Origin: Pelotomaculum propionicicum
GTDB lineage: Bacteria; Bacillota; Desulfotomaculia; Desulfotomaculales; Pelotomaculaceae
Direction of reading: 5' to 3'
DNA: 32,000 bases
Assembly: GCF_048984525.1 (NCBI RefSeq)
Contig: NZ_JBMGJC010000002.1
Coordinates: forward strand, 1,078-33,077
The notes below the pieces were generated by a model. That model was not told the DNA's origin and searched no databases. It saw only the letters and a list, made by a program, of their open reading frames with translations. Shown here piece after piece: positions 6,921 through 26,212 of this stretch (position 1 is its first letter; the number at the start of each line of letters is the position of its first letter). The position numbers and the translations under genes were made by a program.

Positions 6921-7262
6921 CTATTTTAGCTTATATCTGGAAGCTATATTTTCAATTTTTTCCCAAAGCACCTTTATCTCTTCCGGAGATCTTCCTTCTT
7001 TTTCCCATTCATTAATAACCTTAATGTAATGAACAATAATATCCATGTACTTTGAAGGAGTTAAAATGTTGGTTCTCCCGAGTAAATAGTCAGTACTGAC
7101 ATTGAAGTAGTCCGCTATTCTTTGAAGTGTTGCATAATCAGGTTCCCGTTGTCCTATTTCATACATCGATAATGCGCCTCTAGATATTTTAAGTATTTTT
7201 GCAAGTTTAATTTGGGTTAATTTCTTTGATTTTCTTAAGGAAATGAGCCTTTTTTTAAACAT
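6921..7262 (-). CDS. XRE-family helix-turn-helix repressor-like protein, divergent from the tail cluster
   Basis: LTQIKLAKILKISRGALSMYEIGQREPDYATLQRIADYFNVSTDYLLGRT is a canonical HTH_XRE. GAGGG RBS is 6 nt before ATG 7262. Its position matches xre of PBSX. Confidence 0.8.
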   Translation of the reverse strand: MFKKRLISLRKSKKLTQIKLAKILKISRGALSMYEIGQREPDYATLQRIADYFNVSTDYLLGRTNILTPSKYMDIIVHYIKVINEWEKEGRSPEEIKVLWEKIENIASRYKLK

Positions 7263-7305
7263 TATCAACCCTCACTAATTCGCTAAAATACGACAATATA
7301 TTTCA

Positions 7306-7334
7306 TTGACTGCCACGAAACGTTGCATTATTAT
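7306..7334 (+). promoter_or_regulatory. Candidate sigma-A promoter pointing into the tail cluster (TTGACT - 17 nt - TATTAT)
   Basis: Hexamers at 7306-7311 and 7329-7334 with a 17-nt spacer, in the divergent region next to the Xre-like gene. Confidence 0.35.
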
Positions 7335-7469
7335 AAAACAAAATATTTCAATTTTCTACACCTTTAGAATGATAATCTTAATTTTTTTTATTCAGTATTT
7401 TACATATTAAAGTAGATATGTATAAAAATTCTGATAATATTATAAATCTACCAATTCTATATAATTATA

Positions 7470-7570
7470 ATCTTTTGGAGTTAAATCAACTAGAAATACA
7501 TAACCGGTAGTTGGACAGGATTGTGGAGTACAGCTTGAAGCTGGCGGTTAAAACAGTCTGCATGATAAGG
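7470..7570 (+). pseudogene. Ghost 1: decayed copy of the last ~100 nt of the activator gene
   Basis: tagaaatacataaccggtagttggacaggattgtggagtacagc.. aligns with 8583-8630 (tagaaatacatttacccggtggtgggacagaattgtagagtacacgg..). The reading frame is broken. Confidence 0.5.
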
Positions 7571-7591
7571 TTGAAAAATTTTTAGTTTTTA

Positions 7592-7670
7592 TCTGCACGG
7601 TGCCGCAAGAGTTAAAAGCCGATCCATAATGCTATTAAGGGAGCTGCCGCCAAGGCGGCTTTATTGTATA
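7592..7670 (+). promoter_or_regulatory. Conserved box/promoter-like element, copy 1
   Basis: TCTGCACGGTGCCGCA (7592-7607), 17 nt, CATAAT (7625-7630). Then hairpin GCCGCC/GGCGGC (7646-7659) followed by CTTTATTGT. Confidence 0.55.
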
Positions 7671-7981
7671 CCAAATTTTTTATATTTTCATCAGTATAAA
7701 GCTTTAATAACGGAAAAGAACGTGAAAATATAAAAACCTATTGATAGGATATTACCATTTTGGTAATATATTATATGTATAAAGAACATATGTTCGATCT
7801 CAAGTGTAGGACTTTTACTTATCCCGGGATAATTCCTGTTCCTTGTATTACATTCAAAAAGTAGTACAAGGGCTATAAATAGGTAACTAAAAACATTAAT
7901 AAGAAGTATTTGATAATAGAGCATGTTTCTGTTTACGGGGCTTAGCTAATAGAACTAATAAAACTAAGAGCGCGAAATTAG

Positions 7982-8004
7982 GCGCGGACATGGTATCCGC
8001 GCCC
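7982..8004 (+). other. Isolated GC-rich hairpin in the AT-rich spacer upstream of the activator gene
   Basis: GGCGCGGA-catggta-TCCGCGCC is a perfect 8-bp stem. The following U-tract is weak, so its function is uncertain. Confidence 0.3.
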
Positions 8005-8172: not shown

Positions 8173-8664
8173 ATGGAGGTAGCTCTTTTTGAAAGTGAAA
8201 TACGGGAAGATAATAAAATCGTGTCAGCCTGGCTTCTGTACTATCCTGAGCGAAGAAAGGAATACTGGCGCCGGAGAGAAGAGATAATCCACAACTCTGC
8301 CCCCCTTTATAATAGCGTGCCCGGCGGGAAAAATAAAATAGGAGATCCTACCGGGAGAAAGGGCCAGAAGTTGGCGGATCTCCAAGAAACCGAACGATGG
8401 CTGGAACTGGTGGAAGAAGTAGAGCGGCGACTGTCTTGGAAAATGCAAGTCTTTTTGAACCTCCGCAGGGAGTATCGGCATGCCAGGGGACGACAGGGGT
8501 GGACGGCGGCAGTACAGTGGAGGTTTTCACATGAAGTTGCCGAGCGGTTGGGGAAGAGACCGGAGGATACATGGGTTGAGAGTAGAAATACATTTACCCG
8601 GTGGTGGGACAGAATTGTAGAGTACACGGTAAGATTGGCTGCAAAAAACGGTTTACTATGTTAG
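8173..8664 (+). CDS. RinA/ArpU/Xpf-type sigma-like late-gene transcriptional activator
   Basis: 163 aa. It shows the N-terminal Y..ERRKEY pattern, a central G(D)PTG..G patch and a C-terminal HTH-like SRNTFTRWWDRIVEYTVRLAAKNG. AAGGAGG RBS. It sits where xpf sits in PBSX. Confidence 0.7.
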   Translation: MEVALFESEIREDNKIVSAWLLYYPERRKEYWRRREEIIHNSAPLYNSVPGGKNKIGDPTGRKGQKLADLQETERWLELVEEVERRLSWKMQVFLNLRREYRHARGRQGWTAAVQWRFSHEVAERLGKRPEDTWVESRNTFTRWWDRIVEYTVRLAAKNGLLC

Positions 8665-8691
8665 GTTTTAGAATTTGTTCTGTTAATTTAT

Positions 8692-8775
8692 TTCTGCACT
8701 GTGCCACAATAGGTAAAAACCGATCAATAATTGTTATTAAGTAAGCCGCTGCCTAGGCGGCTTTGGTATTTTTAT
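8692..8775 (+). promoter_or_regulatory. Conserved box/promoter-like element, copy 2
   Basis: TTCTGCACTGTGCCACA (8692-8708), 17 nt, AATAAT (8726-8731). Then hairpin AAGCCGC-tgcctag-GCGGCTT (8743-8763) followed by TGGTATTTTTAT. Confidence 0.55.
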
Positions 8776-8796
8776 GTTTATTGCAGGTGGTTAGAA

Positions 8797-8960
8797 TAAC
8801 AGTGAGCAGGGGAAGTGTTCCCTGGAGATAGCTGCTTGGCTGGGACAATAGCCGGAGGATGAATTGGTGGAGAGTAGTACATATTAAAACAATGGCAAGA
8901 CAGTATTTTGGAGTACGGGGTGGAACTGGGAACAACGAGGCAGTCTCGTTTTAGTGTAGA
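8797..8960 (+). pseudogene. Ghost 2: decayed copy of the last ~160 nt of the activator gene
   Basis: ..gctgcttggctgggacaatagccggaggatgaattggtggagagtagtacatatt..ttttggagtacgggg.. aligns with 8536-8630 of the intact gene. It contains in-frame TAG and TAA. Confidence 0.55.
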
Positions 8961-8980
8961 TAAATTATAAAAAATTTTAT

Positions 8981-9062
8981 TCTGCACAGTGCCACAAAGG
9001 AGAAAAGTGGATTTAATATGATAGCAGGGAGCCATCCGATAGGAGGATGGTTATTTTTATTA
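8981..9062 (+). promoter_or_regulatory. Conserved box/promoter-like element, copy 3
   Basis: TCTGCACAGTGCCACA (8981-8996), 17 nt, TAATAT (9014-9019). Then hairpin CCATCC-gatagga-GGATGG (9032-9050) followed by TTATTTTTATT. Confidence 0.55.
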
Positions 9063-9070
9063 GAGTAATG

Positions 9071-9099
9071 ACAGAGCTGGGTTAAATGGCTCTGTTTTT
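9071..9099 (+). terminator. Terminator-like hairpin just downstream of element copy 3
   Basis: ACAGAGC-tgggttaaatg-GCTCTGT followed by TTTTTA. Confidence 0.45.
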
Positions 9100-9294
9100 A
9101 CTTGTTGAGGTGGTGCTGGCAAAATGATATAAGAAAGCAGCAATCTATATGGATCCTGGTGCGAATCAAATCTTCGTTAATATCCTGGATTAATAATGCC
9201 ACAGGCCTGTCGGTTACTTCTAACAGTGGAGATATTAAGATACAACGGCAGGCTACCGACTCAAAAATTTTAACTCTAGAAGGAGGGAAGACAA

Positions 9295-9669
9295 ATGCCG
9301 TTTACAACTGCAACAGCGAATAAGATTCTAGACAAGATCCTGCGCGGTGTTGATTTTACTCCAGCAACAAACCTCTATATAAGTCTCCATACTGCTGACA
9401 GTGGGGATAATGGGGCAAACGAAGTAACTGGTGGGAGCTATGCTCGTCAAGCTATTACCTTTAACGCTGCTAATAGCAAACATGCCGATAATCCGTCTCA
9501 AATTGAGTTTGCCGGAATGCCGGCCTGCACTATAACTCATGTCGGTCTTTGGAGTGCATCAACCCTAGGAGATTTCTGGTGGGGCGGAGACCTTACCGCA
9601 AGCAAGACTCTGAATGCAGGAGATACCTTACGGTTTCCAGCTGCGGATGTTGACGTTAATCTTGTATAG
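9295..9669 (+). CDS. Small phage structural-module protein, function unknown
   Basis: GAAGGAGGG RBS. At 124 aa, its pattern (..ILDKILRG...LYISLHTAD..G.NEV.GGSYARQ.I.F....) is one I have seen in phage virion/tail-fibre neighbourhoods but cannot name. Confidence 0.55.
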   Translation: MPFTTATANKILDKILRGVDFTPATNLYISLHTADSGDNGANEVTGGSYARQAITFNAANSKHADNPSQIEFAGMPACTITHVGLWSASTLGDFWWGGDLTASKTLNAGDTLRFPAADVDVNLV

Positions 9670-9704
9670 GACGATAAGACGTCCCCAATATAGGGGTGAG
9701 TTAA

Positions 9705-11051
9705 ATGCCAAGTCAATCGAAAAGTGCGGGCAGCGCAGTGAGCGATACAGGTGTCTCGCCTTATACAGACCAAGCATGGGTAAATCCTAGTTATATTACT
9801 GCCGATGACTCCAACTACGCATCTATAACATCAAACCAATTCGATATAGGTAAATATTCCCAAAGGATGTTTGCTTACAACTTTGGTTTTAGTATTCCAT
9901 TAAATGCCACTATAGAAGGTATACTAGTTGAGATCAAAAGATATTGTGGTTCTGGTAGTGTTGCAGATGATTATATCTACCTGAATTCAACCGGGGTGGT
10001 AGGAAATAACAAGAGCGCGGGTGCTTCTTGGCCAGGGATAGAACAGTATAATTCTTTCGGAGGAAGCACCGATCTCTGGGGCTGGTCAAACTCTTCTCCA
10101 AGTGCTGTAAATGCTAATAACTTCGGTGTTCATCTAGCCTGCCACGCTACATCTAACAACAGTGATATTTATGTAAACCATGTAAGAATTATAATTAATT
10201 ATACAGAAGAACCAATGGTTGTTACTGGTGCCGCAAGTCTTACAGGTCAAGGCAATGTTTCAGCACAGGGGTATGCACCAGTCATAGGCTCTTCTATAGA
10301 AATTGCAGGGCAGGGAGACTTATCATCTGGTAGTATTAAAGTCCGGCAAGGATCTGTAACAGTAGATGGTACAGGAGCTCTCAATGGAACAAGTAATCTA
10401 GTTAAAAACGGATTTGCGAATCTCGAAGGGCAAAGTTATCTTTCTGGAGACGGAATAGATATCGCGGAAGGTGAAATCCAGTTTTCCGGCCAGGGCGATA
10501 TTACCGGGACTGGAATTCACATCATTAATGTAATAGCTTATCTTGAGGGAATCAGTACCCTAGAGGGTTTTGGAAATCAGATATTAGTAGGTTATGCTCA
10601 AATAGACGGTTCAGGTAACTTACAGGCAACAAGTGAAATGGGGAATTTGGATATGACATCACTTTGGGAGATCCAGAATGCGATTTATACAATCTTAACA
10701 AACGACTTAATTCTAATGGGAAAAATCACAGGTGTTTTTGACAATGTTCCTAGCGGCCAGTCCTATCCATATGTAGTAATTGGTGAAGCTAAAGAAACGT
10801 CGGTAGATAACTTTGGCAAGCAGGGCCGGGAAGCGACAACCACATTACACATATGGAGCCAGGCTACCAGTTTTGAAGAACCACTCAGTATACTTGATGA
10901 TTTAAACCGGTTGCTCGATAGAGCAAACCTTAACCTCACCCGTTTTGTTACGATACGCTGTGGGTATGATTCAGCTGAAACCATTCGCGATCCTGACGGG
11001 ATAAGGCGACATATCCCGGCAAAATACAAAATATTAGTTGAGGAGGTATAA
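9705..11051 (+). CDS. Fusion protein: unknown beta-rich N-domain + Gly-rich repeats + C-terminal DUF3168-like tail-completion domain
   Basis: C-terminal ~130 aa (..GVFDNVPSGQSYPYVVIGE...TLHIWS...RDPDG..H..AKYKILVE) matches the DUF3168 tail-completion pattern. Residues ~171-315 are ~18-aa G-x-G repeats (LTGQGNVS, IAGQGDLS, FSGQGDIT, IDGSGNLQ). Confidence 0.65.
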   Translation: MPSQSKSAGSAVSDTGVSPYTDQAWVNPSYITADDSNYASITSNQFDIGKYSQRMFAYNFGFSIPLNATIEGILVEIKRYCGSGSVADDYIYLNSTGVVGNNKSAGASWPGIEQYNSFGGSTDLWGWSNSSPSAVNANNFGVHLACHATSNNSDIYVNHVRIIINYTEEPMVVTGAASLTGQGNVSAQGYAPVIGSSIEIAGQGDLSSGSIKVRQGSVTVDGTGALNGTSNLVKNGFANLEGQSYLSGDGIDIAEGEIQFSGQGDITGTGIHIINVIAYLEGISTLEGFGNQILVGYAQIDGSGNLQATSEMGNLDMTSLWEIQNAIYTILTNDLILMGKITGVFDNVPSGQSYPYVVIGEAKETSVDNFGKQGREATTTLHIWSQATSFEEPLSILDDLNRLLDRANLNLTRFVTIRCGYDSAETIRDPDGIRRHIPAKYKILVEEV

Positions 11052-11289
11052 CAAAATGTCAGCATTAGCCGATATAATGGGAAGGTTATGGTTGGCACAT
11101 ATACAGTGGCGGAAATTTCTATGAAGTATATGAGTTTATCTACAGTCTGAGCACCTTTAGGGGTGCTTACATATTAGAGATAAGCTAAGCTACAGGGGGT
11201 GGCTGGTTTAACGGTGTATCGGTAACATGCCTTCAGGCGGTTTGTGCTATATTTTCCCCGACAGCAAATGAAAATAATTACCTGAGGAG

Positions 11290-11400
11290 GGTGGCCAAGC
11301 AGGTTAGCGCTTTATAGCTTCTACCACGGTCAAGCCTAACTGGGGCAACCAGAAACTGTTATAAAAATATAACAACTTGGGCCGGAATAGGTAGGTTATT
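11290..11400 (+). pseudogene. Fragment of an xkdN-like tail chaperone gene in an ORF-free spacer
   Basis: 11324-11357 is 33/34 identical to 15019-15052 inside the intact xkdN-like gene. Weaker similarity covers 11300-11395 vs 15000-15090. Translation (ASTTVKPNWGNQKLL*) hits stops. Confidence 0.6.
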
Positions 11401-11679
11401 TGTTTGCGTCCTGCTTGCTGAAAACAGTCAACTCTATTGATGTGTTGTTCGACTGTCTGATTTAAAATCAGCCTCAAGACGACTGTTCGTCAAGGAAAAT
11501 TCTCAAACACGAATTGGACGTATAAATGCTATTTAGTGACTTTAGCAGCCATGGGCGGATATGAGATGTTCTCAGATCCGAGAGCACAAAAGCAAAAGTT
11601 GTGGTAGTTACATCTCCTCTATTAAGGGATGTATCATATGCTCGTTAAAAAGCTTAAGAATTTGTACTTAAAAAATTTT

Positions 11680-11752
11680 TCTGCACGGTGCCACATGAGG
11701 GAAAAAGCGACCCATAATGCTATTAAGGGAGACTCCACCAAGGCCTTGGTGT
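11680..11752 (+). promoter_or_regulatory. Conserved box/promoter-like element, copy 4 (immediately upstream of the main structural operon)
   Basis: TCTGCACGGTGCCACA (11680-11695), 17 nt, CATAAT (11713-11718). Then hairpin CACCAAGG/CCTTGGTG (11736-11751) with no U-tract after it. The 11834 start is about 80 nt downstream. Confidence 0.6.
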
Positions 11753-11833
11753 CTATAACTGTAAGGAAGGGTGGTGAGAAAAGGTATGGGGGGGAAACGT
11801 TGGAAGGAACCTTGAAAGGAAGGTTGAGATAAC

Positions 11834-12664
11834 ATGACTATAATGATTGCTAAAGAAATAGCACAATATTTACAAGCTATGGGGGAGGGAACGCTAAACA
11901 CAAATATTTTTGTGGATATACAACCAGACGCGCCAGACAACATCCCCTTCCTTACCGTTTACGACAAAGGTGGAGTCTCTCCTCAGGACCCGCCTGAAAA
12001 TTGGCGCGAGTTGTATATCCAGGGACGGAACATTGATCACCAGGATGGCTACGACCGTATCTGGCGCATATTAAACCTAATTTTACGTCCCACAGCTGGT
12101 TTTATAGAAGTTGGAACAAATAAATACACAGCCCAACTCCAAGAATTACCATCTATGTCAGGCCGGGATCTTCAAAACAGGTATTTGTTCGGATTTCGGG
12201 TAATCATTCGTAGTGTTAGCGATATTTCGACGGGTGATGAATGGCTTGACACACTTGCAAGTTGGACCGGGACAATATTAACGGGCTGGACGGTATATAA
12301 AGTTTGGCAGGGCAATAACAGGCCGTCCGTTACCTGGCGTTTGTCCACTGTGCAGGTGACGGAAAAGGCTAAAGCTGTGTTCGAGGTAAGAAAGAAGTAT
12401 ACCGGTGAGGTACTGGGCAATACAACATACGAATTGGTTTTCGGCACAACAAAGTTAGTTCAGGAATTGGGAAGTACTATTAAACTGACGCTGGACGCAT
12501 TAAACAAGCGGTACCTGACGGTCAGCACCCCGACAGCGGATTTGCGGGAAGATTCTTTGACTGCCGGGCAGGTATCCGTGGTTTTGAGCAGGCTGACGAG
12601 CAGACCGTCGGAAGAAGCACCGATTATGGCGGGAGTGCATCATAAAGGGATAATTATAAATTAG
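11834..12664 (+). CDS. Neck/tail-terminator-type protein (databases often label this family 'minor capsid protein') with an extra C-terminal half
   Basis: The N-terminal ~130 aa (IAKEIAQYLQAMGEGTLNTNIFVDIQPDAPDN..VYDKGG..) fits the family found just upstream of tail genes. Residues ~135-276 are additional. Confidence 0.5.
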   Translation: MTIMIAKEIAQYLQAMGEGTLNTNIFVDIQPDAPDNIPFLTVYDKGGVSPQDPPENWRELYIQGRNIDHQDGYDRIWRILNLILRPTAGFIEVGTNKYTAQLQELPSMSGRDLQNRYLFGFRVIIRSVSDISTGDEWLDTLASWTGTILTGWTVYKVWQGNNRPSVTWRLSTVQVTEKAKAVFEVRKKYTGEVLGNTTYELVFGTTKLVQELGSTIKLTLDALNKRYLTVSTPTADLREDSLTAGQVSVVLSRLTSRPSEEAPIMAGVHHKGIIIN

Positions 12665-12677
12665 CGAGGTGGTTAAA

Positions 12678-12881
12678 ATGGCTGGCAGAGGTAAAAAAAA
12701 TAATGTTGCAACCATAATTCCCGTATACCCCCGGGAAGAGCTTCTGGCCAAGTCAGAAGCTCTTTTTGGTGTAAAGCCGGAGGTTCTTCACGGGGCTCTG
12801 CACGGTGATGTCCGCGCGGAGTTTCCGTTGGAGGAAGTAAAAAGTATGATTAAATCATTTTTAAAAAGGAGGATTAGCTAA
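12678..12881 (+). CDS. Small conserved phage protein, function unknown
   Basis: GAGGTGG RBS 5 nt before ATG 12678 and a TAATG overlap with the sheath start. The ..ALFGVKPEVLHGAL....EFPLEEVKSMIKSFLKR pattern recurs in Firmicute phage morphogenesis modules. Confidence 0.5.
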   Translation: MAGRGKKNNVATIIPVYPREELLAKSEALFGVKPEVLHGALHGDVRAEFPLEEVKSMIKSFLKRRIS

Positions 12882-14361: not shown

Positions 14362-14772
14362 ATGGCTTTGGACGCAAGCAGGGCAATACTGGGTACCTAC
14401 GGGTACCTTTACATTGACGGTCAATGGCAGACCAACATAAACCATCTCGAAGCGACAGTGGAGATGGAGAAAAGGGAACTGCTGCTTTCGGGTGACGCCT
14501 GGAAGCGGCACAAAAAAGGCCCTATGAAAGGGACGGGCACCATGAGCGGTTTCAAGGTGACCAGCGAGATGTTACAGAGGGGCTTCGGCAAGTTCGAGAT
14601 CATCTCCAAGCTGGACGACCCGGAGTCCTACGGGCACGAACGGATCAGGCTGAAAAATGTGATGGTTGACGGACTGCCTCTGGCTAATTGGAAGGCCGGC
14701 GAAGAAGTGGTGGAGGAGATCAAATTCACCTTTGAGGAATACGAGCTGCTCGACCCGATTGTAGCCGGTTAG
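14362..14772 (+). CDS. xkdM: Tail tube protein (XkdM-like)
   Basis: 136 aa. GTYGYLYIDGQ....HLEATVE..K.E.....D.W..HK..G.KGTG.MSGFKVTSE is XkdM/DUF2001-like. Its position is immediately after the sheath. Confidence 0.85.
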   Translation: MALDASRAILGTYGYLYIDGQWQTNINHLEATVEMEKRELLLSGDAWKRHKKGPMKGTGTMSGFKVTSEMLQRGFGKFEIISKLDDPESYGHERIRLKNVMVDGLPLANWKAGEEVVEEIKFTFEEYELLDPIVAG

Positions 14773-14783
14773 GAGTGGAGACA

Positions 14784-16385: not shown

Positions 16386-16420
16386 AATTTTTATCAAAAA
16401 ATTGAGGAGGAGTGCCTCCT

Positions 16421-18478: not shown

Positions 18479-18926
18479 CTTATTTCCTATAGAAATAGTG
18501 AACCCGCTCCCTGAAATAACGGGAACAGGCGCCGGCCAGGTTCGTTTCGGCAGGAGCTGGCGCTTTGACTTCGACAGCGGGGACTTCGTACTGACGCCGG
18601 CAGGCCAGGTGGCCGAGTGCGGTAACGAGGAGGCCTGGTTGGAGTGGTGCCGAAAGGCGCTGATGACCGCCAGGTACCGCTACCTCGTTTACTCGCGGAA
18701 CTATGGGCAGGAGTTTGAAGACCTTATAAGCCGGCATCTGAACCGGGCGGGGAACGAAAGTGAAATCAAGCGAATAACAACCGAGTGCTTGAAGGTAGAC
18801 CCGAGGACATCCGGCGTGGACAACTTTACCTTCACCTGGGAGGAAGACACATGCCAGTTTACATGTGAGGTAACCAGTGTGCTCGGCGGCAGCGGGACTA
18901 TGAATGGAATGGTGGTGATCGGATAA
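18471..18926 (+). CDS. xkdS: XkdS-like (DUF2634, gp25/gpW-like) baseplate wedge protein
   Basis: ..EAWLEWCRKALMTARYRYLVYSRNYGQEFEDLI......E.KR.ITECL..DPR pattern. Confidence 0.8.
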   Translation: MPNLFPIEIVNPLPEITGTGAGQVRFGRSWRFDFDSGDFVLTPAGQVAECGNEEAWLEWCRKALMTARYRYLVYSRNYGQEFEDLISRHLNRAGNESEIKRITTECLKVDPRTSGVDNFTFTWEEDTCQFTCEVTSVLGGSGTMNGMVVIG

Positions 18927-18927
18927 G

Positions 18928-20520
18928 ATGGCTGTATTGCCGGAATACTTGACTGAGCAAACAGAGGAAGCAATAAAACAGAGAATCCTTGACGCCCTGC
19001 CGGACGATCTTGACAAGACGGAGGGGAGCTACATCTGGGACGCGGTCTCCCCGGTGGCGATTGAATTGGCGCTGGCGGCCATATGGGCAAAGGAGGTCCT
19101 GCGCAGGGGTTTCGCTTCGACGACTTTTGGCGATTACCTGGACCTGCGCTGCGAGGAGCACGGCCTGACCAGGATAGCGGCGGTGAAGGCTACAGGGACG
19201 ACTGCAAAGGGTAACTCGTTGACGATTACGGGAACGCCGGGAAAAGTAAACGCAGGGCTGAGGGTTGCTACCCAGGCTAACCCTGTTACGAATACTCCTT
19301 CTATTGAGTTTTTAACTACCACGGAGTGTAATATCGAAAGTGGCGGAACTGGAACTGCCGATATTGAGGCCGTGGTGGCGGGGACAGGCGGCAACGTACC
19401 AGCCGGGGCTATCAGCGTGGTGGTGGACCCCTACGTGGGGGTCACGGGAGTGACGAACTCCGCCCCGATTACCGGGGGGCTGAACACGGAAACCGATGCT
19501 GCGCTCCTGGCCAGGTACCTTCAAAAAGTGAGGTCCCCCTCGGCGGGAGGGAATAAGGCCGACTACTTGAACTGGGCGCTGGAAGTGGCTGGAGTCGGGG
19601 GAGTCGCGGTAACCCCGGTGAGGGACGGCCCGGGGACGGTGAGCGTGGCGATCATCGGGACGGACAAGGCCCCGGCGAGCCAGACCCTGGTGGATGCTGT
19701 ACAGAACTATATCGCCCCGTCCTGGATAAACGAAAAAGAGGCCGAAAACATGACGATCGGCGGCTTTGGAGTTTTTCCCGACAATCAGCCGGACGACACA
19801 GGGAGTTCAGTCAAGATAGTGTACGACACTTCCGGGATTGGAACGGTAACTCATACAAATGTAAACAGCATCCTACAACAGCCCGGCATCTGGCAGGCCC
19901 GGAACCATCTCAAGGTTGACAATATCTCAGGAGTCAACGACCTGCTGGAAGTAGGGATGTATAATGTTTCTGGCGCTGTTTGGTGTAAGACCAGGCCGGA
20001 AGGATCGACTGACGCCAAGATCACGCTTAAGGCAAGTGACCTTGGTACAACCTTTACAGATAAGATCGTGGAGTTTTATTGGAACGGGTCGGATCAAATC
20101 GAACTACGGATAAAACGCCTTGCACCCGATACCACGGCCGTGGAGGTATGTTTTGACCGGACGGTGTACCGTTCCACATTCAGTAAGGACACCGGGGAAG
20201 GTAAGGCGCCGGTGGGCGCCAGGGTAACGGTGGAAAAGGCGACCGCGGTTTTGATTAATGTCTCAGCTACGCTAACCATTATGCCGGGTTACAACTCCAC
20301 CAGCGTGAAGGCGGCAGTGGAGCAAAACATAGAGGACTACATCAGGGGCCTGGCGTTTACTGAGGACAACGACGTGCGCTACGTGCGGATCGGAAACGCC
20401 ATCCTGGATACGCCGGGCGTGCAGGACTACACCGGGTTTACGGTGAACGGGGGTACGGCCAACATTACTGTGGGTGCCCAGGAGGTGGCGGTGAAAGGGA
20501 CGGTGAGCCTGCTGCCATGA
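18928..20520 (+). CDS. xkdT: Baseplate J-like protein (XkdT-like) carrying a ~160-aa internal insertion
   Basis: N-terminal ..YLTEQTEEAIKQRILDALPDDLDKTEGSYIWD.. and C-terminal ..VRIGNAILDTPGVQDY.. are Baseplate_J-like. Residues ~265-425 (nt ~19720-20203) interrupt the conserved YIAP...APVGARVTV junction. Confidence 0.8.
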   Translation: MAVLPEYLTEQTEEAIKQRILDALPDDLDKTEGSYIWDAVSPVAIELALAAIWAKEVLRRGFASTTFGDYLDLRCEEHGLTRIAAVKATGTTAKGNSLTITGTPGKVNAGLRVATQANPVTNTPSIEFLTTTECNIESGGTGTADIEAVVAGTGGNVPAGAISVVVDPYVGVTGVTNSAPITGGLNTETDAALLARYLQKVRSPSAGGNKADYLNWALEVAGVGGVAVTPVRDGPGTVSVAIIGTDKAPASQTLVDAVQNYIAPSWINEKEAENMTIGGFGVFPDNQPDDTGSSVKIVYDTSGIGTVTHTNVNSILQQPGIWQARNHLKVDNISGVNDLLEVGMYNVSGAVWCKTRPEGSTDAKITLKASDLGTTFTDKIVEFYWNGSDQIELRIKRLAPDTTAVEVCFDRTVYRSTFSKDTGEGKAPVGARVTVEKATAVLINVSATLTIMPGYNSTSVKAAVEQNIEDYIRGLAFTEDNDVRYVRIGNAILDTPGVQDYTGFTVNGGTANITVGAQEVAVKGTVSLLP

Positions 20521-21092
20521 GTGAGTATCCGGTAACATCAGCAAGGGGGCAGAAGATGACCGGTTACCTGCCGTGCTACTATCAGTCTTCGAGGGTGATG
20601 AGGTCGATCGTCCAGGGCCAGGGGAGCGAGTTGGACAAGCTGAGACAGGCGCTGGACGAGACCCTCGACCAGTTTTTCGTGAACACGGCGACATGTCGCC
20701 TAGGGGACTGGGAGGCCGAACTCGGCCTGCCGGTGGCCCCGGCGCAGCCTGAGACTGAACGGCGCGACAAGATCATGTCGAAGCTGCGGGGAATGGGCAC
20801 CTGCACGATCAAGCTGGTGAAGCAAGTGGCGGAGAGCTACGACGCAGGTGCCGTGAACGTGGCAGAAGACTTCACGGGTTACCTGGTAATAGTGAAGTTT
20901 GTGGACACGCGTGGATTGCCGCCGAACATAGAAGACTTGATGGCGGCAGTCCGGGACATAGTGCCGGCGCACCTGGAAATCCTGTACGAGTACAGTTATT
21001 TCCTGTGGGACGATCTTGACGAAAAGGTTTGGACCTGGGATCAGCTCGATACGCTTGGGTTGATGTGGGATCAACTGGAGGTATACGTTTAA
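20517..21092 (+). CDS. xkdU: XkdU-like (DUF2313, gpI-type) tail-fibre adaptor, copy 1
   Basis: ATGA overlap with xkdT-like. ..YLP.YYQSSRVM..I...G.E.DKLRQALDETLDQFFVNTAT..L.DWE.ELGL pattern. Confidence 0.75.
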   Translation: MSEYPVTSARGQKMTGYLPCYYQSSRVMRSIVQGQGSELDKLRQALDETLDQFFVNTATCRLGDWEAELGLPVAPAQPETERRDKIMSKLRGMGTCTIKLVKQVAESYDAGAVNVAEDFTGYLVIVKFVDTRGLPPNIEDLMAAVRDIVPAHLEILYEYSYFLWDDLDEKVWTWDQLDTLGLMWDQLEVYV

Positions 21093-21186: not shown

Positions 21187-21762
21187 ATGAGTGATTATCC
21201 AATGACCAGCGCAAGCGGGCTGAGGATGCTGGGCTGTCTTCCCGAGTATTACAAATCCAGCCGGGTAATTAAAACCATCAGTCAAGTGAGAGGGGAGGAG
21301 GTAGATAAACTTCGCCAGGCGCTTGACGAGACGCTGGAGCAGTTTTATATCAACACGTCGACCTGGAGCCTGGATGACTGGGAGGAGGAACTGGGACTGC
21401 CTCTCGCGCCGGAGCAGCCGGAGTCTCAGCGGCGGCCAAAGATTAAGTCCAGGATCCGGGGAAAGGGCACCTGTACCATTAAAATAGCCAAAGAGGTCGC
21501 GGAGAGCTACGAAAACGGCACGGTGGAGGTAGTGGAAAACCACCCTCAGTATCTGGTGCTAATTATTTTCGTAGATGTCTTCGGGATACCCCCGAACATG
21601 AACGATCTGATGGCAGCCTTAAGGGCGGTGGTACCGGCGCACCTTAGTATTCAGTATCAATACCGCTGGACTCTTTACGGCGATATCAAGACCTGGGGGC
21701 TTACCTACGGAGACCTTAAGACGTTAACCTACGGCGGGATTAAAACTTATAAACCTTCATAG
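21187..21762 (+). CDS. xkdU: XkdU-like (DUF2313, gpI-type) tail-fibre adaptor, copy 2 (paralogue)
   Basis: Same length (191 aa) and collinear with copy 1. By eye about half the residues are identical (MS.YP.TSA.G..M.G.LP.YY.SSRV...I....G.E.DKLRQALDETL.QF..NT.T..L.DWE.ELGLP.AP.QPE..RR.KI...). Confidence 0.75.
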   Translation: MSDYPMTSASGLRMLGCLPEYYKSSRVIKTISQVRGEEVDKLRQALDETLEQFYINTSTWSLDDWEEELGLPLAPEQPESQRRPKIKSRIRGKGTCTIKIAKEVAESYENGTVEVVENHPQYLVLIIFVDVFGIPPNMNDLMAALRAVVPAHLSIQYQYRWTLYGDIKTWGLTYGDLKTLTYGGIKTYKPS

Positions 21763-21765: not shown

Positions 21766-22998
21766 GTGGAACAATTGCAACAAACTGCCAATTACGGCTT
21801 TTTAAAGCCTGAAGACAATGAAGCTTTTGACGAGCAGGCCCACGCTAATACAAATATGGATGCCATAGATACCCAAATAAAGACCAGGGCAGATGATCAT
21901 GCTGCGCATTTGGCCGATAATGTGCCACATATACCTTACGCAATAGCATCGGGTGCAACTAACGTATATATTGTTACTCTCAACCCGGTGCCTGCTTCTT
22001 ATACCGAAGGTATGGCTATAGCTATTAAGATTAGTATTGAAAACACTGGGGCTTCAACAGTTAATGTCAATGGGCTCGGCGTAAAAAGCATTAAGAAGCC
22101 AAATGGAAACGATGTGTCGGCTGGCAACTTAAAGGCTGGAAGTATATACACCCTTCGTTATAACGGAACAAATTTTATCTTACAGGGTGAAGGAGGTGGT
22201 GGAACTGCAACTACAGGTGACGTCCTGGCAGGTAAAACCTTTACTAATGACAGCGGTGAACAGGCAGGCGCTATGCCTAATAGGGGCGCTGTAGTACTGA
22301 CCCCTGGAACAACTAACCAGGCCATAACTGCAGGGTATCATAACGGCTCCGGTTATGTACTAGGGGACGCGGACTTAATATCTGCAAATATTAAAGCCGG
22401 AGTTAACATTTTCGGGGTGGCCGGTAACTCTAATGTGATTAATACATCACCAGGTACCGCTGTAGCCGGGGATATTTTAGCGGGTAAAATAGCTTTTGTT
22501 GATGGCGCACAGTTAACAGGTACGATGATAAATAGGGGCGCTTTAGCAATAACCCCTGGAACGGCCCAACAAGCTATAGTTACGGGATACCATGACGGTA
22601 ATGGTTACGTACAGGGTGACTCTGACTTAACTGCAGCGAACATAAAAAAGGACGTGCTTATTTTTGGAATAACAGGGACATTTCAGGGCCGAATTGCTAC
22701 TGGATCTCTTACAATTACTGACAGCAATTATACGCAGCAGCGTACCATTTCGGGCTTAGGTTTTCAGCCCACATGGGTACACCTAGAACAAACAGGATTT
22801 AGTACTTCACGCTTTATTGCCACAAAAGGCAGTATATTAGGGGTTTCGTTAATAACTATGAACTGGATGAGGAACGACGGGGGCAGCACCGAAGTAAGTG
22901 CTCAAATTGCCTTTACGTCGGACGGGTTTACATTCTATCCCCGTGACCCTTATGATAGTACAGAAACAATATACTGGTGGGCTGGTAAGTTTGACTAA
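21766..22998 (+). CDS. Tail fibre protein, set 1
   Basis: N-terminal TANYGFLKPEDNEAFD....N.NMDAID is a typical Firmicute phage fibre anchor motif. It has an internal duplicated ~70-aa unit, a Gly run (GEGGGGT) and a GTG start after GGAGGTGG. Confidence 0.75.
   Translation: MEQLQQTANYGFLKPEDNEAFDEQAHANTNMDAIDTQIKTRADDHAAHLADNVPHIPYAIASGATNVYIVTLNPVPASYTEGMAIAIKISIENTGASTVNVNGLGVKSIKKPNGNDVSAGNLKAGSIYTLRYNGTNFILQGEGGGGTATTGDVLAGKTFTNDSGEQAGAMPNRGAVVLTPGTTNQAITAGYHNGSGYVLGDADLISANIKAGVNIFGVAGNSNVINTSPGTAVAGDILAGKIAFVDGAQLTGTMINRGALAITPGTAQQAIVTGYHDGNGYVQGDSDLTAANIKKDVLIFGITGTFQGRIATGSLTITDSNYTQQRTISGLGFQPTWVHLEQTGFSTSRFIATKGSILGVSLITMNWMRNDGGSTEVSAQIAFTSDGFTFYPRDPYDSTETIYWWAGKFD
22216..22680 (+). 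repeat. Duplicated ~70-aa module inside the fibre gene
   Basis: GDVLAGKTFTNDSGEQAGAMPNRGAVVLTPGTTNQAITAGYHNGSGYVLGDADLISANIKAGVNIFGVAG versus GDILAGKIAFVDGAQLTGTMINRGALAITPGTAQQAIVTGYHDGNGYVQGDSDLTAANIKKDVLIFGITG. Confidence 0.85.
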
Positions 22999-23012
22999 GG
23001 AGCTAAAGATGG

Positions 23013-23050
23013 AAGCAGGGAGGAGGTTCTCTTGCTTCCTGTTTTTCTGT
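23013..23050 (+). terminator. Rho-independent terminator inside the tail cluster, after fibre set 1
   Basis: GGAAGCAgGGAG-gaggtt-CTCtTGCTTCC followed by TGTTTTTCTG. Confidence 0.65.
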
Positions 23051-23225
23051 AAGACGAGATAAAGCTGAAACATTGATAGTGGATGATTCTGCTTCATTAT
23101 AAAAGGTTATAAGGTACATACATTAAACCTGCAAAAGCCTTTGTGATGACTGATGCGAAGAACCGGACAAAAAATTTATTCGATGCTCTAATATTAATGT
23201 GGGATTTATTGGAGGTGAATGAATA

Positions 23226-23606
23226 ATGCCAGAAATAACACCAAACCTCGGCCTTAAAAAACCTCTCAGTAATGAGACGGTCAGTCGGGCCGCCTATAAT
23301 GAGAACTTGGACATTCTCGAATCAAATGCCATGGCAAAAGGATTAGATGCCCAGGACATCAACAAAACTAAGGTCTTGAATATTGAAATCGACGGACGGA
23401 ATGTAACCCTGGCATACGATGGAAGCGGTCGACTTCAAACAATCACCGAGAAGGATGGGGTGACAATGGTTGACACGGTAACCCTGGCCTATGACGGAAG
23501 TGGAAATCTGCAGACACTTACGGAAATAGCTGGAGGTTCCACAATAACAACGACACTCGGATATACAACTGGGAAATTAACTTCTATCACGCCAGTGGTG
23601 ACATAG
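23226..23606 (+). CDS. Tail-fibre-like protein, set 2, with YD-type repeats
   Basis: N-terminal PNLGLKKPLSNETVSRAAYNENLDILE is the same anchor motif as 21766. Two VTLAYDGSG(R/N)LQT(I/L)TE repeats. GGAGGTGA RBS. Confidence 0.65.
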   Translation: MPEITPNLGLKKPLSNETVSRAAYNENLDILESNAMAKGLDAQDINKTKVLNIEIDGRNVTLAYDGSGRLQTITEKDGVTMVDTVTLAYDGSGNLQTLTEIAGGSTITTTLGYTTGKLTSITPVVT

Positions 23607-23621
23607 GAAGGGGTGATCTAA

Positions 23622-24320
23622 ATGGATAAAGCGGCAATAGCGGCACTCGCAAACGCAATCCAGATTTTGAACCTGATCGGTAAGAGCGGGGATCCGGCCG
23701 GGATAACCTCTTTATTTGCCTGGATGGCGAGGTTAGAACAATATGTCGATCAGGTAGAGGGTTATACCGATACCGTAGAGGGCCTCATTGGTACCGCAAA
23801 CCCGGCAACCGGCGACTTAACGACAGTTTTTAAAGGATTAAAGCTGATCACGGATTATGTTGATACCCTGGAAACAAAACTAGGGTTGAACACCGACCCA
23901 GCTGGAACAAATACCGTTTTTGCCCGTTTAGCACAAATGGCAGGTTACACAGATACCCTGGAAACAAACCTGGCTGCCGGATTTATCAGAAGTATTCAAC
24001 GTGGTACATCTGCCGGGGCCGGTAACGTAACCATTACGGCGGTTAATACGGCAAAAACAATGGTACTAAGCGCATCCAAAGGGAGCGCCGGTTATGTGGC
24101 AGCAAGGGGTAGTGTTTCACTTACCCCATCAGGAGGAAATATTCTTGGGTATGCAGAAGATGGTAGCGGTCAATCCTCGGGAGGTTTCCCTACTTATAGT
24201 GGCTCAATTACAGGTGGCTCTACTGACCTAACAGTCAAGGTTTATAGCGCAAAACTTCTTAATAGCACAACAATTTACTGTGATGGAGCATGTGAATGGC
24301 AGGTGATTGAGTATGTATAA
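23622..24320 (+). CDS. Tail-fibre distal/receptor-binding-like protein
   Basis: Three G/DY(T/V)DT(V/L)E repeats (GYTDTVEGLIG, DYVDTLETKLG, GYTDTLETNLA), then a Gly/Ser-rich beta-like C-terminal domain. AGGGGTGA RBS. Confidence 0.55.
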   Translation: MDKAAIAALANAIQILNLIGKSGDPAGITSLFAWMARLEQYVDQVEGYTDTVEGLIGTANPATGDLTTVFKGLKLITDYVDTLETKLGLNTDPAGTNTVFARLAQMAGYTDTLETNLAAGFIRSIQRGTSAGAGNVTITAVNTAKTMVLSASKGSAGYVAARGSVSLTPSGGNILGYAEDGSGQSSGGFPTYSGSITGGSTDLTVKVYSAKLLNSTTIYCDGACEWQVIEYV

Positions 24321-24519
24321 TTGGGCTTTAATTGATAAAGTAACTGGTCAAATTATAAACGCTGTCTCAACTATAAACGAAGGGGTTAAACCTTTACCTG
24401 AAAGCGAAAACCAGGAAGTACTTTCAGTGTCTCAGGCTGGTTTTTACGGGATTATAAATGGACAACTAAAATATTACAACTATAATACCGATCAACTGGA
24501 GCCCGACGCAACCAAGTAA
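24313..24519 (+). CDS. Small protein after the fibre genes (fibre-chaperone position), function unknown
   Basis: AGGTGA RBS 7 nt before ATG 24313; the track's TTG at 24307 is too close to the RBS. 68 aa. Confidence 0.45.
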   Translation: MYNWALIDKVTGQIINAVSTINEGVKPLPESENQEVLSVSQAGFYGIINGQLKYYNYNTDQLEPDATK

Positions 24520-24592
24520 GCTCATATATGGGCTAAAATGCGCAGTGAGGCTCCGGCTTTTAAAGGACTGATTATTCCTAGAGGTGATAATT

Positions 24593-25150
24593 GTGGAGTT
24601 AGATCGCCTGTTCCAGGTTAATTTCAAGCCCGTGTGGGCTTTTTTATTTGCTGTTTTTAATTATTTGATCTGTCCGAACGCGGCGTACCTTCCGGCCATT
24701 GCGGCGGTCTGGGTGGCTGTGATCCTTGACATTTTTACCCGGCTTTTTGCAAATTCACGCCGTTGCGGGGGGTTTTTGAAAGCAATCCGGGAACGGGTTA
24801 TCTCCAGTGACACGCTTTGGAACAGGACTGTTGTCAAGGTAGTGGCATACCTGTGCCTGCAGATTCTGGCCGGGCTCTCCTTACGAGTCCTGCCGCTGGA
24901 ACAAGTCAGTATAGCCGTGGCAACGGTTATCTACTCCTTCCTGTTTGTCAGGGAGGCCACCAGTGTGGTTGAGAACCTGGTTGAAGCCGGGGCAGATGAT
25001 CTGAAACCCCTGCTTTGCTGGTTGAAAAGGAAAGAAACGGATTTAACAGAAGACCGGTTGGATGTAAAAAAACAGAACAGCCAATACGGAGGAAAAATAA
25101 CCGGGACTATCCCTGAACAAGCTGACCAGGAGGTAAAAAAGGATGTTTAA
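24593..25150 (+). CDS. Phage holin (holin_4/LL-H-like family)
   Basis: Multiple TM helices, with ..ILDIFTRLFA..., ..KVVAYLCLQILAG... and ..YSFLFVREATSVVENLVEAG.. typical of this holin family. The start (GTG 24584 or 24593) is uncertain. Confidence 0.7.
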   Translation: MELDRLFQVNFKPVWAFLFAVFNYLICPNAAYLPAIAAVWVAVILDIFTRLFANSRRCGGFLKAIRERVISSDTLWNRTVVKVVAYLCLQILAGLSLRVLPLEQVSIAVATVIYSFLFVREATSVVENLVEAGADDLKPLLCWLKRKETDLTEDRLDVKKQNSQYGGKITGTIPEQADQEVKKDV

Positions 25151-25883
25151 GGTTGTAATTGATCCGGGACACGGCGGTGAAGATCCCGGCGCAGTTGGTC
25201 CCGGCGGGGTACAAGAGAAAAGCGTTAACCTCGCGGTTGCTAAACGAATTGCTAGCTTGCTATCCCCGGTGGCAGAGGTACGGTTGACAAGGACAGAGGA
25301 GGAAGCCCTGGGGACAGATGACCGGAGTGATCTATATGGCCGGGCGGCCCTGGCCAACGAATGGGTAGCTGATTGTTTCGTGAGCATACACTGCAACGGT
25401 GCAGCCGATCCGTCAGCACATGGCACGGAAACATACCATTATCCCGACAGCGGGCAGGGGAGAGAACTGGCACAGGCAATACACTCAAGATTGATCCCTG
25501 ACCTTGGATTGACCGACCGGGGCGTAAAGCAAGCAAACTTTAAAGTCTTGAGGCAGACTGATTGTCCAGCCTGTTTGGTTGAACTGGCCTTTATCTCAAA
25601 TCCGGAAGAGGAGAGGCTGCTGGAAAACCGGGACTTCCAGGAGACAGCGGCGCAGGCGGTGGCTGCCGGTATCGCCGATTTTCTTGGGGCGTGTCTACAA
25701 CCGGCACCTGCGCCGGAGACCGTTGCTCCCACTAATCCGGAACTGGATGATTGGAAGTTGAAGATCGTGCGGGAAGCACGGGAAGCAGGGCTGATAAGCC
25801 AGGACCATGATCCGGATGAATCAGGTGCGGTATGGTTTGTCCTGGCCATAGCGTTAAATTTGTTAAAGGTGGTGAAAGGATGA
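25143..25883 (+). CDS. N-acetylmuramoyl-L-alanine amidase (Amidase_3) endolysin with short C-terminal binding motif
   Basis: VVIDPGHGGEDPGAVG...SIHCNG...HGTETY...DRGVKQANFKVLRQTDCPACLVELAFISNPEE is Amidase_3. The C-terminal DDWKLKIVREAREAGLISQDH..WFVLAIALNLLK resembles the Amidase02_C motif. Confidence 0.85.
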   Translation: MFKVVIDPGHGGEDPGAVGPGGVQEKSVNLAVAKRIASLLSPVAEVRLTRTEEEALGTDDRSDLYGRAALANEWVADCFVSIHCNGAADPSAHGTETYHYPDSGQGRELAQAIHSRLIPDLGLTDRGVKQANFKVLRQTDCPACLVELAFISNPEEERLLENRDFQETAAQAVAAGIADFLGACLQPAPAPETVAPTNPELDDWKLKIVREAREAGLISQDHDPDESGAVWFVLAIALNLLKVVKG

Positions 25884-26101
25884 GACCGTTTCTGGAGAGG
25901 TTGAAATCAAGGAAATTAATCATGGCCCTGGTTGCAGCAGGGGTCTCTTGTGTAAAAGCCTGCTACCCGGACTTTCCAGACAAGGCGTTGTACACTATTG
26001 TGGGGGCGCTCATGGGTTATGTGGCTGTTGAAGGTTTAGTGGATTCTGCCGCGCAGTTGGCCAAATGGGCTAAAGCAAAGTGCGATGCTACCGTTAAATA
26101 A
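25880..26101 (+). CDS. Small membrane protein (second holin-like/lysis accessory)
   Basis: ATGA overlap with the amidase stop. 73 aa with two hydrophobic segments (LIMALVAAGVSCV; LYTIVGALMGYVAVEGLV) and a charged tail. Confidence 0.5.
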   Translation: MRPFLERLKSRKLIMALVAAGVSCVKACYPDFPDKALYTIVGALMGYVAVEGLVDSAAQLAKWAKAKCDATVK

Positions 26102-26178
26102 ATACACCTTAAGATAAAGCAGTTTAATATCATTCACAAAATGGCAAAATGTACTGAAATAGGAAAAGATATTTGGAA

Positions 26179-26212
26179 CAAAACCACCTCCTTTTATTGG
26201 GGGTGGTTTTTT
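26179..26212 (+). terminator. Strong rho-independent terminator closing the tail/lysis cluster
   Basis: AAAACCACCTCC-ttttatt-GGGGGTGGTTTTTT. Confidence 0.85.

Follow-up and report, generated by a model that had tools for sequence, protein, structure and literature searches.

A head-less PBSX-type contractile tail locus at the thrC-mrr junction of Pelotomaculum propionicicum, probably an R-type tailocin

When a bacterial genome carries the tail of a contractile phage and no head, is the locus the residue of a prophage or a particle that the host has kept for its own use? The question is raised by a 32-kb stretch of the genome of Pelotomaculum propionicicum (the window, to which all coordinates refer), in which a minus-strand Xre gene and about 25 plus-strand genes occupy positions 6921-26210, as read from an open reading frame (ORF) listing and three profile libraries (Pfam, PHROGs and NCBIfam). 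Ten proteins of the window are identical to public entries from a single 273,607-bp contig of this species (proteins MFX4261023-059). The host is a syntrophic Desulfotomaculaceae species of the class Clostridia; the original prediction, made from the sequence alone, had guessed at an anaerobe-like host and was correct in this. We propose that the locus is a domesticated, head-less contractile tail cluster of the PBSX type and probably an R-type tailocin: it combines a complete contractile-tail set (the tape-measure protein, TMP, being assigned by position), an element free of head genes, a lysis cassette of its own and maintenance by selection. Features suited to stress control are also present: the Xre gene, the gene of a putative late regulator and, following a sigmaA-like promoter, a GAACATATGTTC box that is perfect and conserved. 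The original prediction had likewise seen a candidate R-type tailocin; its tail-only, lysis-competent and repressor-controlled character stands, given an empty-site relative and a second lineage under selection, while its sigma-like activator, its scars of head genes and its claim of novelty do not.

The gene set of the tail is that of PBSX, with the families XkdK-M-N-(O)-P-Q-R-S-T-U present in order and the tail and lysis genes joined by tight or overlapping junctions. The gene content and order proposed earlier are confirmed by the ORF listing and the three libraries, as is the intactness of the tail and lysis ORFs, about 25 of which follow one another unbroken. The repressor gene, the tail operon and the lysis genes are as follows (lengths in amino acids, aa):

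6921-7268, minus strand: Xre-type HTH repressor, 115 aa (PF01381 HTH_3, 4e-16; phrog_8, 3e-28)
11834-12664, plus strand: tail terminator, 276 aa (PF12691, 1e-12; phrog_2146)
12669-12881, plus strand: small YqzN/YkzM-like protein (phrog_1939, 5e-14; its orthologue matches PF26160, YqzN_YkzM)
12881-14347, plus strand: tail sheath (phrog_279, 3e-109; four Pfam sheath domains)
14362-14772, plus strand: tail tube (PF09393, 1e-47)
14775-15188, plus strand: XkdN-type tail assembly chaperone in frame 0, the -1 product running to 15367 (PF08890, 8e-33)
15354-16385, plus strand: gene in the tape-measure slot (TMP-slot), 343 aa, 38% GC, assigned by position only
16412-17059, plus strand: XkdP-like LysM protein (phrog_380, 2e-65; LysM, 2e-8)
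17056-18054, plus strand: XkdQ/YqbQ-like (YQBQ) baseplate hub protein (PF24032, 3e-29; phrog_400, 2e-58)
18047-18478, plus strand: XkdR-like (DUF2577) protein (phrog_2403, 2e-26; PF10844, 1e-4)
18471-18926, plus strand: XkdS, the gp25-like sheath initiator (PF10934, 2e-38)
18928-20520, plus strand: XkdT, Baseplate_J (PF04865, 8e-58)
20517-21092 and 21187-21762, plus strand: pair of XkdU/Mu Gp48-like proteins (PF10076, 3e-28 and 5e-25)
21766-24519, plus strand: fibre/receptor-binding region with fib410, an RHS-repeat protein of 126 aa, p232 and p70 (phrog_28171, 2e-60; fibre PHROGs; RHS_repeat)
24584-25150, plus strand: holin (PF05105, 27.5 bits against a cut-off of 22.2; phrog_199; hydrophobic segments)
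25143-25883, plus strand: Amidase_3 endolysin (PF01520, 2e-54; phrog_435, 2e-53)
25880-26101, plus strand: small hydrophobic holin-like protein, 73 aa, whose ATG overlaps the amidase stop codon
26180-26210, no strand: bidirectional intrinsic terminator at the operon end (12-bp stem, flanking A- and T-runs)

Two details that had been read from the letters alone hold up. The hairpin of 12 bp with its T-run at 26180-26210 does close the operon, and the chaperone gene does carry a -1 frameshift: a slippery heptamer, A_AAA_AAC, lies at 15179-15185, one codon ahead of the frame-0 stop (15188), and the -1 frame adds 60 aa to give a product of 197 aa, which runs to 15367, into the beginning of the following gene. 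Five other related loci, head-less and head-bearing alike, have conserved both heptamer and extension. The uneven base composition of the operon (60% GC in the sheath gene, 38% in that of the TMP) might have pointed to a recent acquisition by mosaicism, but this reading was rejected, the same pattern being found in sister loci.

In the 32-kb window, which sets the scope of the head-gene searches, no ORF matched a terminase, portal, protease, capsid, integrase or replication family in any of the three libraries; these profile searches and tblastn bear out the earlier remark that such genes are missing here. With the head modules of five related prophages as queries, tblastn detected no remnant of a head protein in the window or in the head-less loci, and PHROG scans of the forward-frame translations of 8760-9300 and 11040-11680 returned none. 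The same tail module occurs in intact prophages of Paenibacillus thiaminolyticus (L010) and of two metagenome-assembled genomes (MAGs; L002 and L019), where the same terminator gene is immediately preceded by terminase, SPP1-type portal, capsid and three small connector genes. The end of that head module is precisely the point at which the head-less loci begin: the terminator gene, which opens the conserved tail operon, is the first tail gene in all of them.

The limits of the locus are set by a relative with an empty site (L020), whose blastn homology stops at window position 6909 and restarts at 26986. The indel thus spans 6910-26985 (20,076 bp) between thrC and mrr, where the relative has 28 bp, and with its limits fixed in this way there is no room for a hidden head module. 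This relative and a second one (L021) have a ThrC protein at least 90% identical to that of P. propionicicum and about 88% nucleotide identity to the window; in them thrC adjoins the Mrr-like gene, followed by SIR2 and rhomboid genes. The left end of the island lies 11 nt past the Xre stop codon and its right end just before mrr. Included in the indel is one further gene:

26301-26879, minus strand: flavodoxin-like NAD(P)H oxidoreductase (PF02525, 1.5e-48)

This gene behaves as a host gene within the indel and outside the tail element, because its synonymous divergence (dS) from a metagenomic contig that shares it (L058) is 1.8, similar to that of the host flanks, against 0.5-0.8 for the lysis genes. 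Most simply, the L020 lineage probably lost the element and the flavodoxin gene in a single deletion. The original prediction had found no convincing attachment (att) repeat, and rightly so: the island does lie between imperfect copies of a short direct repeat (ATAAACAyC...CTGA(C)ATAGTAAA), but these were rejected as an att site, since both, 45 nt apart, occur in the empty site too. A tRNA scan found no tRNA in the window and Rfam gave no match there at the gathering threshold, which leaves neither an att site in a tRNA gene nor any known riboswitch or leader.

An empty site in a close relative and the want of an integrase or a clean att site would also fit an inert remnant of a PBSX-like prophage, whose head, packaging and integration genes were deleted and whose tail genes have merely not yet degraded. 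The history of the locus in other lineages bears on this directly. Five loci beside thrC (L022-L026) have the same head-less order of thrC, Xre, a 163-aa protein, terminator, YqzN, sheath, tube, chaperone, TMP-slot, LysM and YQBQ onward; they represent a more distant lineage, and their thrC cluster includes a Desulfotomaculaceae MAG. The right end is shared by L058, which was reached via its amidase homologue and carries, in order, a holin, an amidase (88% identical), a 74-aa protein that preserves the small holin-like gene, the flavodoxin gene on the minus strand and Mrr. Its nucleotide identity is 74%, a divergence like that of L022-L026, and the flanking DNA of these lineages is about 74-75% identical to the window. 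Synteny with related genomes therefore places the same head-less locus at the same junctions, the left one in L022-L026 and the right one in L058.

Substitution patterns are equally telling. The ratio of nonsynonymous to synonymous divergence (dN/dS) against L023 is 0.09 for the sheath, 0.03 for the tube, 0.08 for the 163-aa regulator gene (act163), 0.19 for the LysM protein, 0.13 for XkdQ and 0.16 for the chaperone; it is 0.14 for the amidase and 0.12 for the small lysis protein against L058, and 0.19 for the Xre repressor against its orthologue in L022 (76% identical). Against the more remote locus of a sediment Bacillota MAG (L001), it is 0.02-0.13 with dS saturated. Because the ratios are low (0.02-0.19) in two comparisons and divergent lineages share the head-less junctions, the locus appears to be under purifying selection and not decaying; and since it is kept intact by selection, it is most likely a phage-tail bacteriocin. 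The original prediction had named a merely decaying prophage as the case that would speak against it; dN/dS and the shared junctions instead speak for maintenance. Some traits do suit a remnant: XkdU is duplicated, one fibre gene is a short fragment, and 8.7-11.8 kb holds the xkdN relic along with non-coding stretches; in the MAG L022, a TMP and a second Baseplate_J are each split into two ORFs, the second Baseplate_J/XkdU set there being partly broken. Yet a remnant would hardly be expected to keep about 25 consecutive ORFs intact, to show such constraint on its tail, regulatory and lysis genes in each of two independent comparisons (dS being saturated in one), or to conserve the frameshift signal, a LexA box and a late-promoter element alike, and head-less relatives are also kept at a syntenic site in several Cohnella species. 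We consider an inert remnant unlikely.

The same comparisons indicate how the tail cluster, which we continue to regard as maintained and probably a tailocin locus, may have moved. The dS of the element is 0.2-0.8, against 1.5 for thrC, 2.0 for NUDIX, 1.8 for flavodoxin and 1.4 for mrr in the flanks. This low value does not come from intrinsic constraint, because the tail genes reach saturated dS in the comparison with L001; the element copies consequently have a later common ancestor than the genomes that carry them. The pattern indicates lateral exchange of the element at one and the same site, for which homologous recombination via the flanks is the simplest route.

One segment of the P. 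propionicicum copy, 9039-11827, has no counterpart in the sister locus L022: there the regulator gene is followed by 369 nt and then by the terminator gene. The extra segment holds a Gp80-like gene, an ORF of 448 codons (p448), about 780 bp of non-coding DNA and a fragment derived from xkdN:

9295-9669, plus strand: Gp80-like small fibre/virion protein, 124 aa (PF23140, 2e-36; phrog_240, 3e-36)
9705-11051, plus strand: p448, 448 aa, with a C-terminal PF11367 tail completion gp17 domain (1e-14), matched by its last 120 residues only
11314-11418, plus strand: relic of an xkdN-like chaperone gene within non-coding DNA

The original prediction had taken 8.7-11.8 kb for the former place of the head genes, marked by pseudogene scars. 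This is not what we find: 8.7-11.8 kb holds two intact ORFs, two non-coding stretches with repeated promoter-like elements (described below) and no detectable head remnant, and 9039-11827 is a later insertion, missing from the sister locus. Copies of the element bracket it and suggest that it was acquired by recombination between them, and the xkdN relic (62% over 24 aa by tblastn; by blastn, 91% over 44 nt to 15009-15052 and 77% over 96 nt to the xkdN of L001) testifies to an earlier recombination with another tail cluster. The Gp80-like protein is named 'phage tail fiber protein' by NCBI and is absent from L022; among viral contigs, the neighbours of Gp80-like genes gave no Pfam match. p448 is a fusion, in which a widespread N-terminal module with Gly-rich repeats (residues ~1-315) is joined to a gp17-like domain (317-447). 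In an exhaustive HMMER search of 1.8 billion representatives, residues 1-170 proved to be a very common module with 8,797 matches, and none of the proteins listed was a full-length homologue spanning both halves. The N-terminal part (residues 2-315) corresponds to free-standing proteins of about 340 aa and the C-terminal part (residues 317-447) to free-standing gp17-like proteins of about 135 aa, with 42-46% identity for the latter, and one protein of 691 aa carries another long N-terminus on the same C-terminal domain. No relative of p448 was found in viral contigs.

This module is the chief reason to ask whether the locus might supply tails to a head made elsewhere, by another prophage, a capsid-forming satellite or a head module of the kind found in PBSX or gene transfer agents (GTA), and so be part of a defective phage or a transducing agent. 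The gp17-like domain is intact (PF11367 at 1e-14 over the whole model), it and the Gp80-like virion protein have their own copy of the late-promoter element, and PBSX itself forms heads. Against a role as tail supplier, the sister locus lacks the module and begins at the tail terminator, the head-tail adaptor and head-closure genes of intact relatives are missing here, there is no head gene within the 32 kb, and the fusion in p448 is unique, without a homologue over its whole length. Such a role is, in our judgement, very unlikely. In a tailocin, the Gp80/p448 module may either decorate the proximal end of the particle or be mere baggage.

How would a tailocin of this kind be switched on? The relevant features lie between the repressor gene and the tail operon:

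7269-7420, no strand: divergent promoter/operator region beside xre, with TTGACT-17-TATTAT at 7306-7334 on the plus strand (promoter scan)
7584-7660, plus strand: promoter-like element, copy A, upstream of act163
7741-7769, plus strand: sigmaA-type promoter TTGATA-17-(TG)GTAATAT (TTGATA-17-TGGTAATAT) upstream of act163 (promoter scan)
7784-7795, plus strand: core of a Cheo/LexA box, GAACATATGTTC, the only perfect GAAC-N4-GTTC site in the window
8173-8664, plus strand: act163, putative late-gene activator, 163 aa, all-helical, with no library match
8685-8763, plus strand: promoter-like element, copy B, with a terminator-like hairpin, just after act163
8973-9052, plus strand: promoter-like element, copy C, before the Gp80-like gene, with hairpins at 9030-9052 and 9070-9096
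11672-11760, plus strand: promoter-like element, copy D, immediately upstream of the tail operon

The original prediction had called act163 a sigma-like activator. This did not survive scrutiny: act163 has no Pfam or NCBIfam match at E<=0.01 and no PHROG match; its AlphaFold model (AF2; mean predicted local confidence, pLDDT, of 88) has no significant neighbour in the PDB by Foldseek, the best match to sigma region 4 being at E 1.7 and probability 0.33; and when its family alignment of 29 sequences was compared by hhalign with the Sigma70_r4 activators of sister loci, the probability was 0.2%. All of its 36 homologues are unannotated. In intact phages they close the replication module, following Phage_rep_O, RusA or a methylase, and in one case (L029) terminase, portal and Mu_F genes follow about 6.5 kb downstream. 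Because this position broadly matches that usual for late regulators, we regard act163 as a putative late activator of an uncharacterised phage family.

Two sets of conserved DNA signals accompany the gene. The divergent region 7269-7420 is highly conserved in alignment with L022, and the act163 promoter and its LexA box are identical there base for base; a box in this place is the layout of a LexA-repressed promoter and points to direct SOS control of act163. The second signal is the promoter-like element, in which TCTGCACNGTGCC is followed by CCATAATGCTATTAAGGGAG and this in turn by a hairpin with a U-tract; its motifs are TCTGCAC-N-GTGCC (with the dyad GCAC-N-GTGC) and a CATAAT that lies 17 nt downstream of a weak -35. 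At 34-69 nt in length, it has four copies where 0.04 would be expected by chance, and the sequence of the hairpin stem varies among them. L022 has one copy before the regulator gene and another before the tail operon, orthologous to copy D. The element is found only in loci that carry act163 and is absent from those without it. From this we infer that it is the target of act163, which may be either an activator of the class-II type or an antiterminator of the Q-like type; correspondingly, the element may be a late promoter that depends on the activator or a cassette that pairs a promoter with a terminator for antitermination.

A working model can be drawn from these signals. At rest, LexA would sit on the perfect Cheo box downstream of the sigmaA-type promoter and block transcription of act163, and the neighbouring Xre repressor would hold the divergent switch region. 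Upon DNA damage LexA would be removed and act163 made, which would then activate the promoter-like element or permit read-through at it; with a GCAC-N-GTGC dyad over the -35, a CATAAT -10 and a hairpin with U-tract, this target stands ahead of act163 itself, of the Gp80/p448 module and of the tail operon. The tail operon would yield a short contractile particle of about 50 nm, and the holin, the amidase and the small holin-like protein would lyse the producer. Once released, the particles could bind related cells through their variable fibre proteins, contract and kill. The length in this model comes from the TMP-slot protein: as a rule of thumb, tails measure about 1.5 Å per tape-measure residue, which predicts about 50 nm for 343 aa.

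The fibre region shows no conservation with L022, the sister locus, where other genes follow XkdU, and this divergence is the pattern expected of specificity determinants. The 126-aa RHS-repeat protein matches, by its N-terminal 40 aa, the anchor end (N-termini) of 900-aa fibres of Cohnella, and the two XkdU paralogues, 56% identical to each other, are both intact. As a separate observation, tandem duplication of distal baseplate genes recurs in related loci: besides the two XkdU genes of the window, second Baseplate_J/XkdU sets are present in L022 (18.9-20.4 kb) and in L015 (19.6-21.5 kb), and these may be alternative or decaying modules of fibre attachment.

A head-less chromosomal cluster of sheath, tube and baseplate genes, with an RHS repeat in one protein of its fibre region, could also be an extracellular contractile injection system (eCIS; Afp/PVC/MAC-like) that delivers an effector and not a pore-forming bacteriocin. 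The protein families are of PBSX/phage type, however: the XkdN chaperone with its frameshift, the XkdP LysM protein, YQBQ and Mu Gp48. A phage holin and amidase cassette is present, no AAA+ ATPase, Afp-type tail terminator/cap or recognisable toxin cargo was detected in any ORF, and the nearest solved relatives are phage sheaths, the diffocin and PBSX. An injection system thus seems highly improbable.

Comparison with known particles places the locus among phage-tail bacteriocins. The best solved relatives of its sheath and tube are phage sheaths, and the closest sheath in a sequenced isolate phage is that of Bacillus phage BalMu-1 (37% identical). PBSX of Bacillus subtilis resembles it in the families and order of xkdK-xkdU, in XkdN, in an Xre gene divergent from a positive regulator and in holin plus amidase, and the window tube matches XkdM at 2e-14 (PDB). 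PBSX, in contrast, retains terminase, portal and capsid and packages DNA, whereas the window locus has none of the three; its activator is unrelated to the sigma-r4 proteins (Xpf in PBSX), and it has a direct LexA box. The R-pyocins of Pseudomonas aeruginosa embody the same concept: a chromosomal head-less contractile tail with a lysis cassette and an SOS-tied repressor/activator pair, set between housekeeping genes and exchanged among lineages. They differ in their P2-like tails, Gram-negative host and PrtR/PrtN control, and orthology does not extend beyond the general folds of sheath and tube.

The diffocin of the anaerobe Clostridioides difficile is the nearest precedent. Its cluster is head-less and has the PBSX-type order of sheath, tube, TMP, LysM, XkdQ-U and receptor-binding protein. 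The window sheath and tube resemble its CD1363 (8e-25) and CD1364 (1.5e-20) in PDB matches; the similarity is nevertheless distant, the diffocin sheath matching the core 215-441 alone. The regulators differ, the window locus has its own cassette of holin, amidase and holin-like protein, its host is a syntrophic Desulfotomaculaceae species, and its TMP-slot gene is very short. The diffocin genes form a cluster of about 20 kb (PMC4453579), described as SOS-inducible in an anaerobic clostridial host (PMC4453579; PMC6088184). R-type tailocins are reported to be widespread in (solventogenic) clostridia (PMC10538166). The earlier claim that such an architecture had not been described in this kind of anaerobe is therefore overtaken by the diffocin (PMC4453579) and by the clostridial tailocins (PMC10538166). 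The tailocins of solventogenic clostridia and PTLB of Brevibacillus laterosporus are likewise PBSX/XkdK-type contractile particles of Gram-positive spore-formers (PMC10538166, PMC9406221); the window locus, by contrast, is 20 kb long and truly head-less.

Head-less versions also occur in Desulfocucumis palustris (L004), in Peptococcaceae BICA1-7 (L015), in the sediment MAG L001, where the locus adjoins atpDC and spoIID, and in several Cohnella species, with flanking genes syntenic in L003, L006 and L009 (partly in L007). Two Paenibacillus loci (L005 and L008) are head-less as well, but have large fibre-like genes ahead of the terminator gene. Control is of another kind in Cohnella (L003, L006, L007, L009, L012, L014 and L018), L004 and L015, which have an ImmA-type metalloprotease (Peptidase_M78, not found in L004), an Xre gene and a Sigma70_r4 protein; by sequence this is the Xre/Xpf pattern of PBSX. 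Together these loci suggest a conserved, undescribed tailocin family in Paenibacillaceae and Peptococcaceae; in the literature searched, no paper linked tailocins to Pelotomaculum, Desulfotomaculum, Peptococcaceae or Cohnella. One locus (L013, Cohnella sp. WGS1546, 1300-21400) has two tandem tail clusters, the fibre end of one directly before the terminator gene of the next, an arrangement that recalls tandem pyocin loci.

Several points weigh against the tailocin assignment. The TMP-slot protein has no family match in Pfam, PHROGs or NCBIfam, is unusually short (343 aa, as compared with 357 and 437 aa in sister loci) and is the least constrained protein of the operon (57% identical to its L023 counterpart, dN/dS 0.71); it has internal tandem repeats of the form 'FRSLSPN-EELL', and its C-terminal 40 aa resemble the TMP of L001. 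The duplicated XkdU and the truncated-looking 126-aa fibre N-terminus suggest some rearrangement. A gp17-like domain, which joins tail to head, and a Gp80-like protein are not obviously needed by a pure tailocin. Head genes that complement this locus may lie elsewhere in the genome, beyond the 32 kb that the searches covered. Lastly, binding by LexA and act163, like particle formation and killing, is a prediction from the sequence. Weighing these points with the rest, we still hold an R-type tailocin to be the probable identity of the locus.

A broader scenario would join the unusual traits of the locus. A head-less cassette would be exchanged among Desulfotomaculaceae by homologous recombination at thrC-mrr without an integrase; the P. 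propionicicum copy would have captured a head-proximal module with a late promoter of its own, made up of the Gp80-like fibre and of a gp17-like domain joined to an N-terminus that resembles a fibre, and the result would be either tails that dock on the capsids of another element, for example a capsid-forming satellite, or a tailocin whose proximal end is decorated or capped; and act163 with its promoter/hairpin cassettes would form a new Q-like late antitermination system in Bacillota phages. As a whole, we find this scenario decidedly unlikely, and the plainer reading as an R-type tailocin is the one that we retain.

Outside the element, two features of the window are recorded for completeness. 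A second indel relative to L020 lies at 28333-29767, where the relative lacks both some 850 bp of DNA with small ORFs and the greater part of a polysaccharide deacetylase gene (28129-28932). Amid the host genes, an AT-rich stretch at 2000-4000 (35-38% GC), conserved in L020, holds a Cys-rich ORF of 109 aa (2458-2787, minus strand) and an ORF of 113 aa with a weak match to an adhesive domain.

The locus most likely adds an example to a known type of weapon and is no new kind; the concept of the tailocin is unchanged by it. Mildly novel are (i), an unrelated late regulator wired to a LexA box; (ii), evidence that a cassette lacking both head genes and an integrase has been exchanged laterally at a fixed site; and (iii), a captured neck/fibre-like module. 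As head-less PBSX-type loci recur in Bacillota (Pelotomaculum-like lineages, Desulfocucumis, BICA1-7, Cohnella and Paenibacillus) under at least two unrelated control circuits, they form a natural set for the study of phage-tail domestication, and the present one, at about 19 kb and with a very short tape-measure gene, is a compact and apparently self-contained Gram-positive tailocin chassis. The literature searched holds no report of tailocins in syntrophic propionate oxidisers or other Desulfotomaculaceae. Such syntrophic hosts are slow-growing, bottleneck organisms of anaerobic digesters, and a strain-specific killing device could therefore shape which Pelotomaculum strains persist there.

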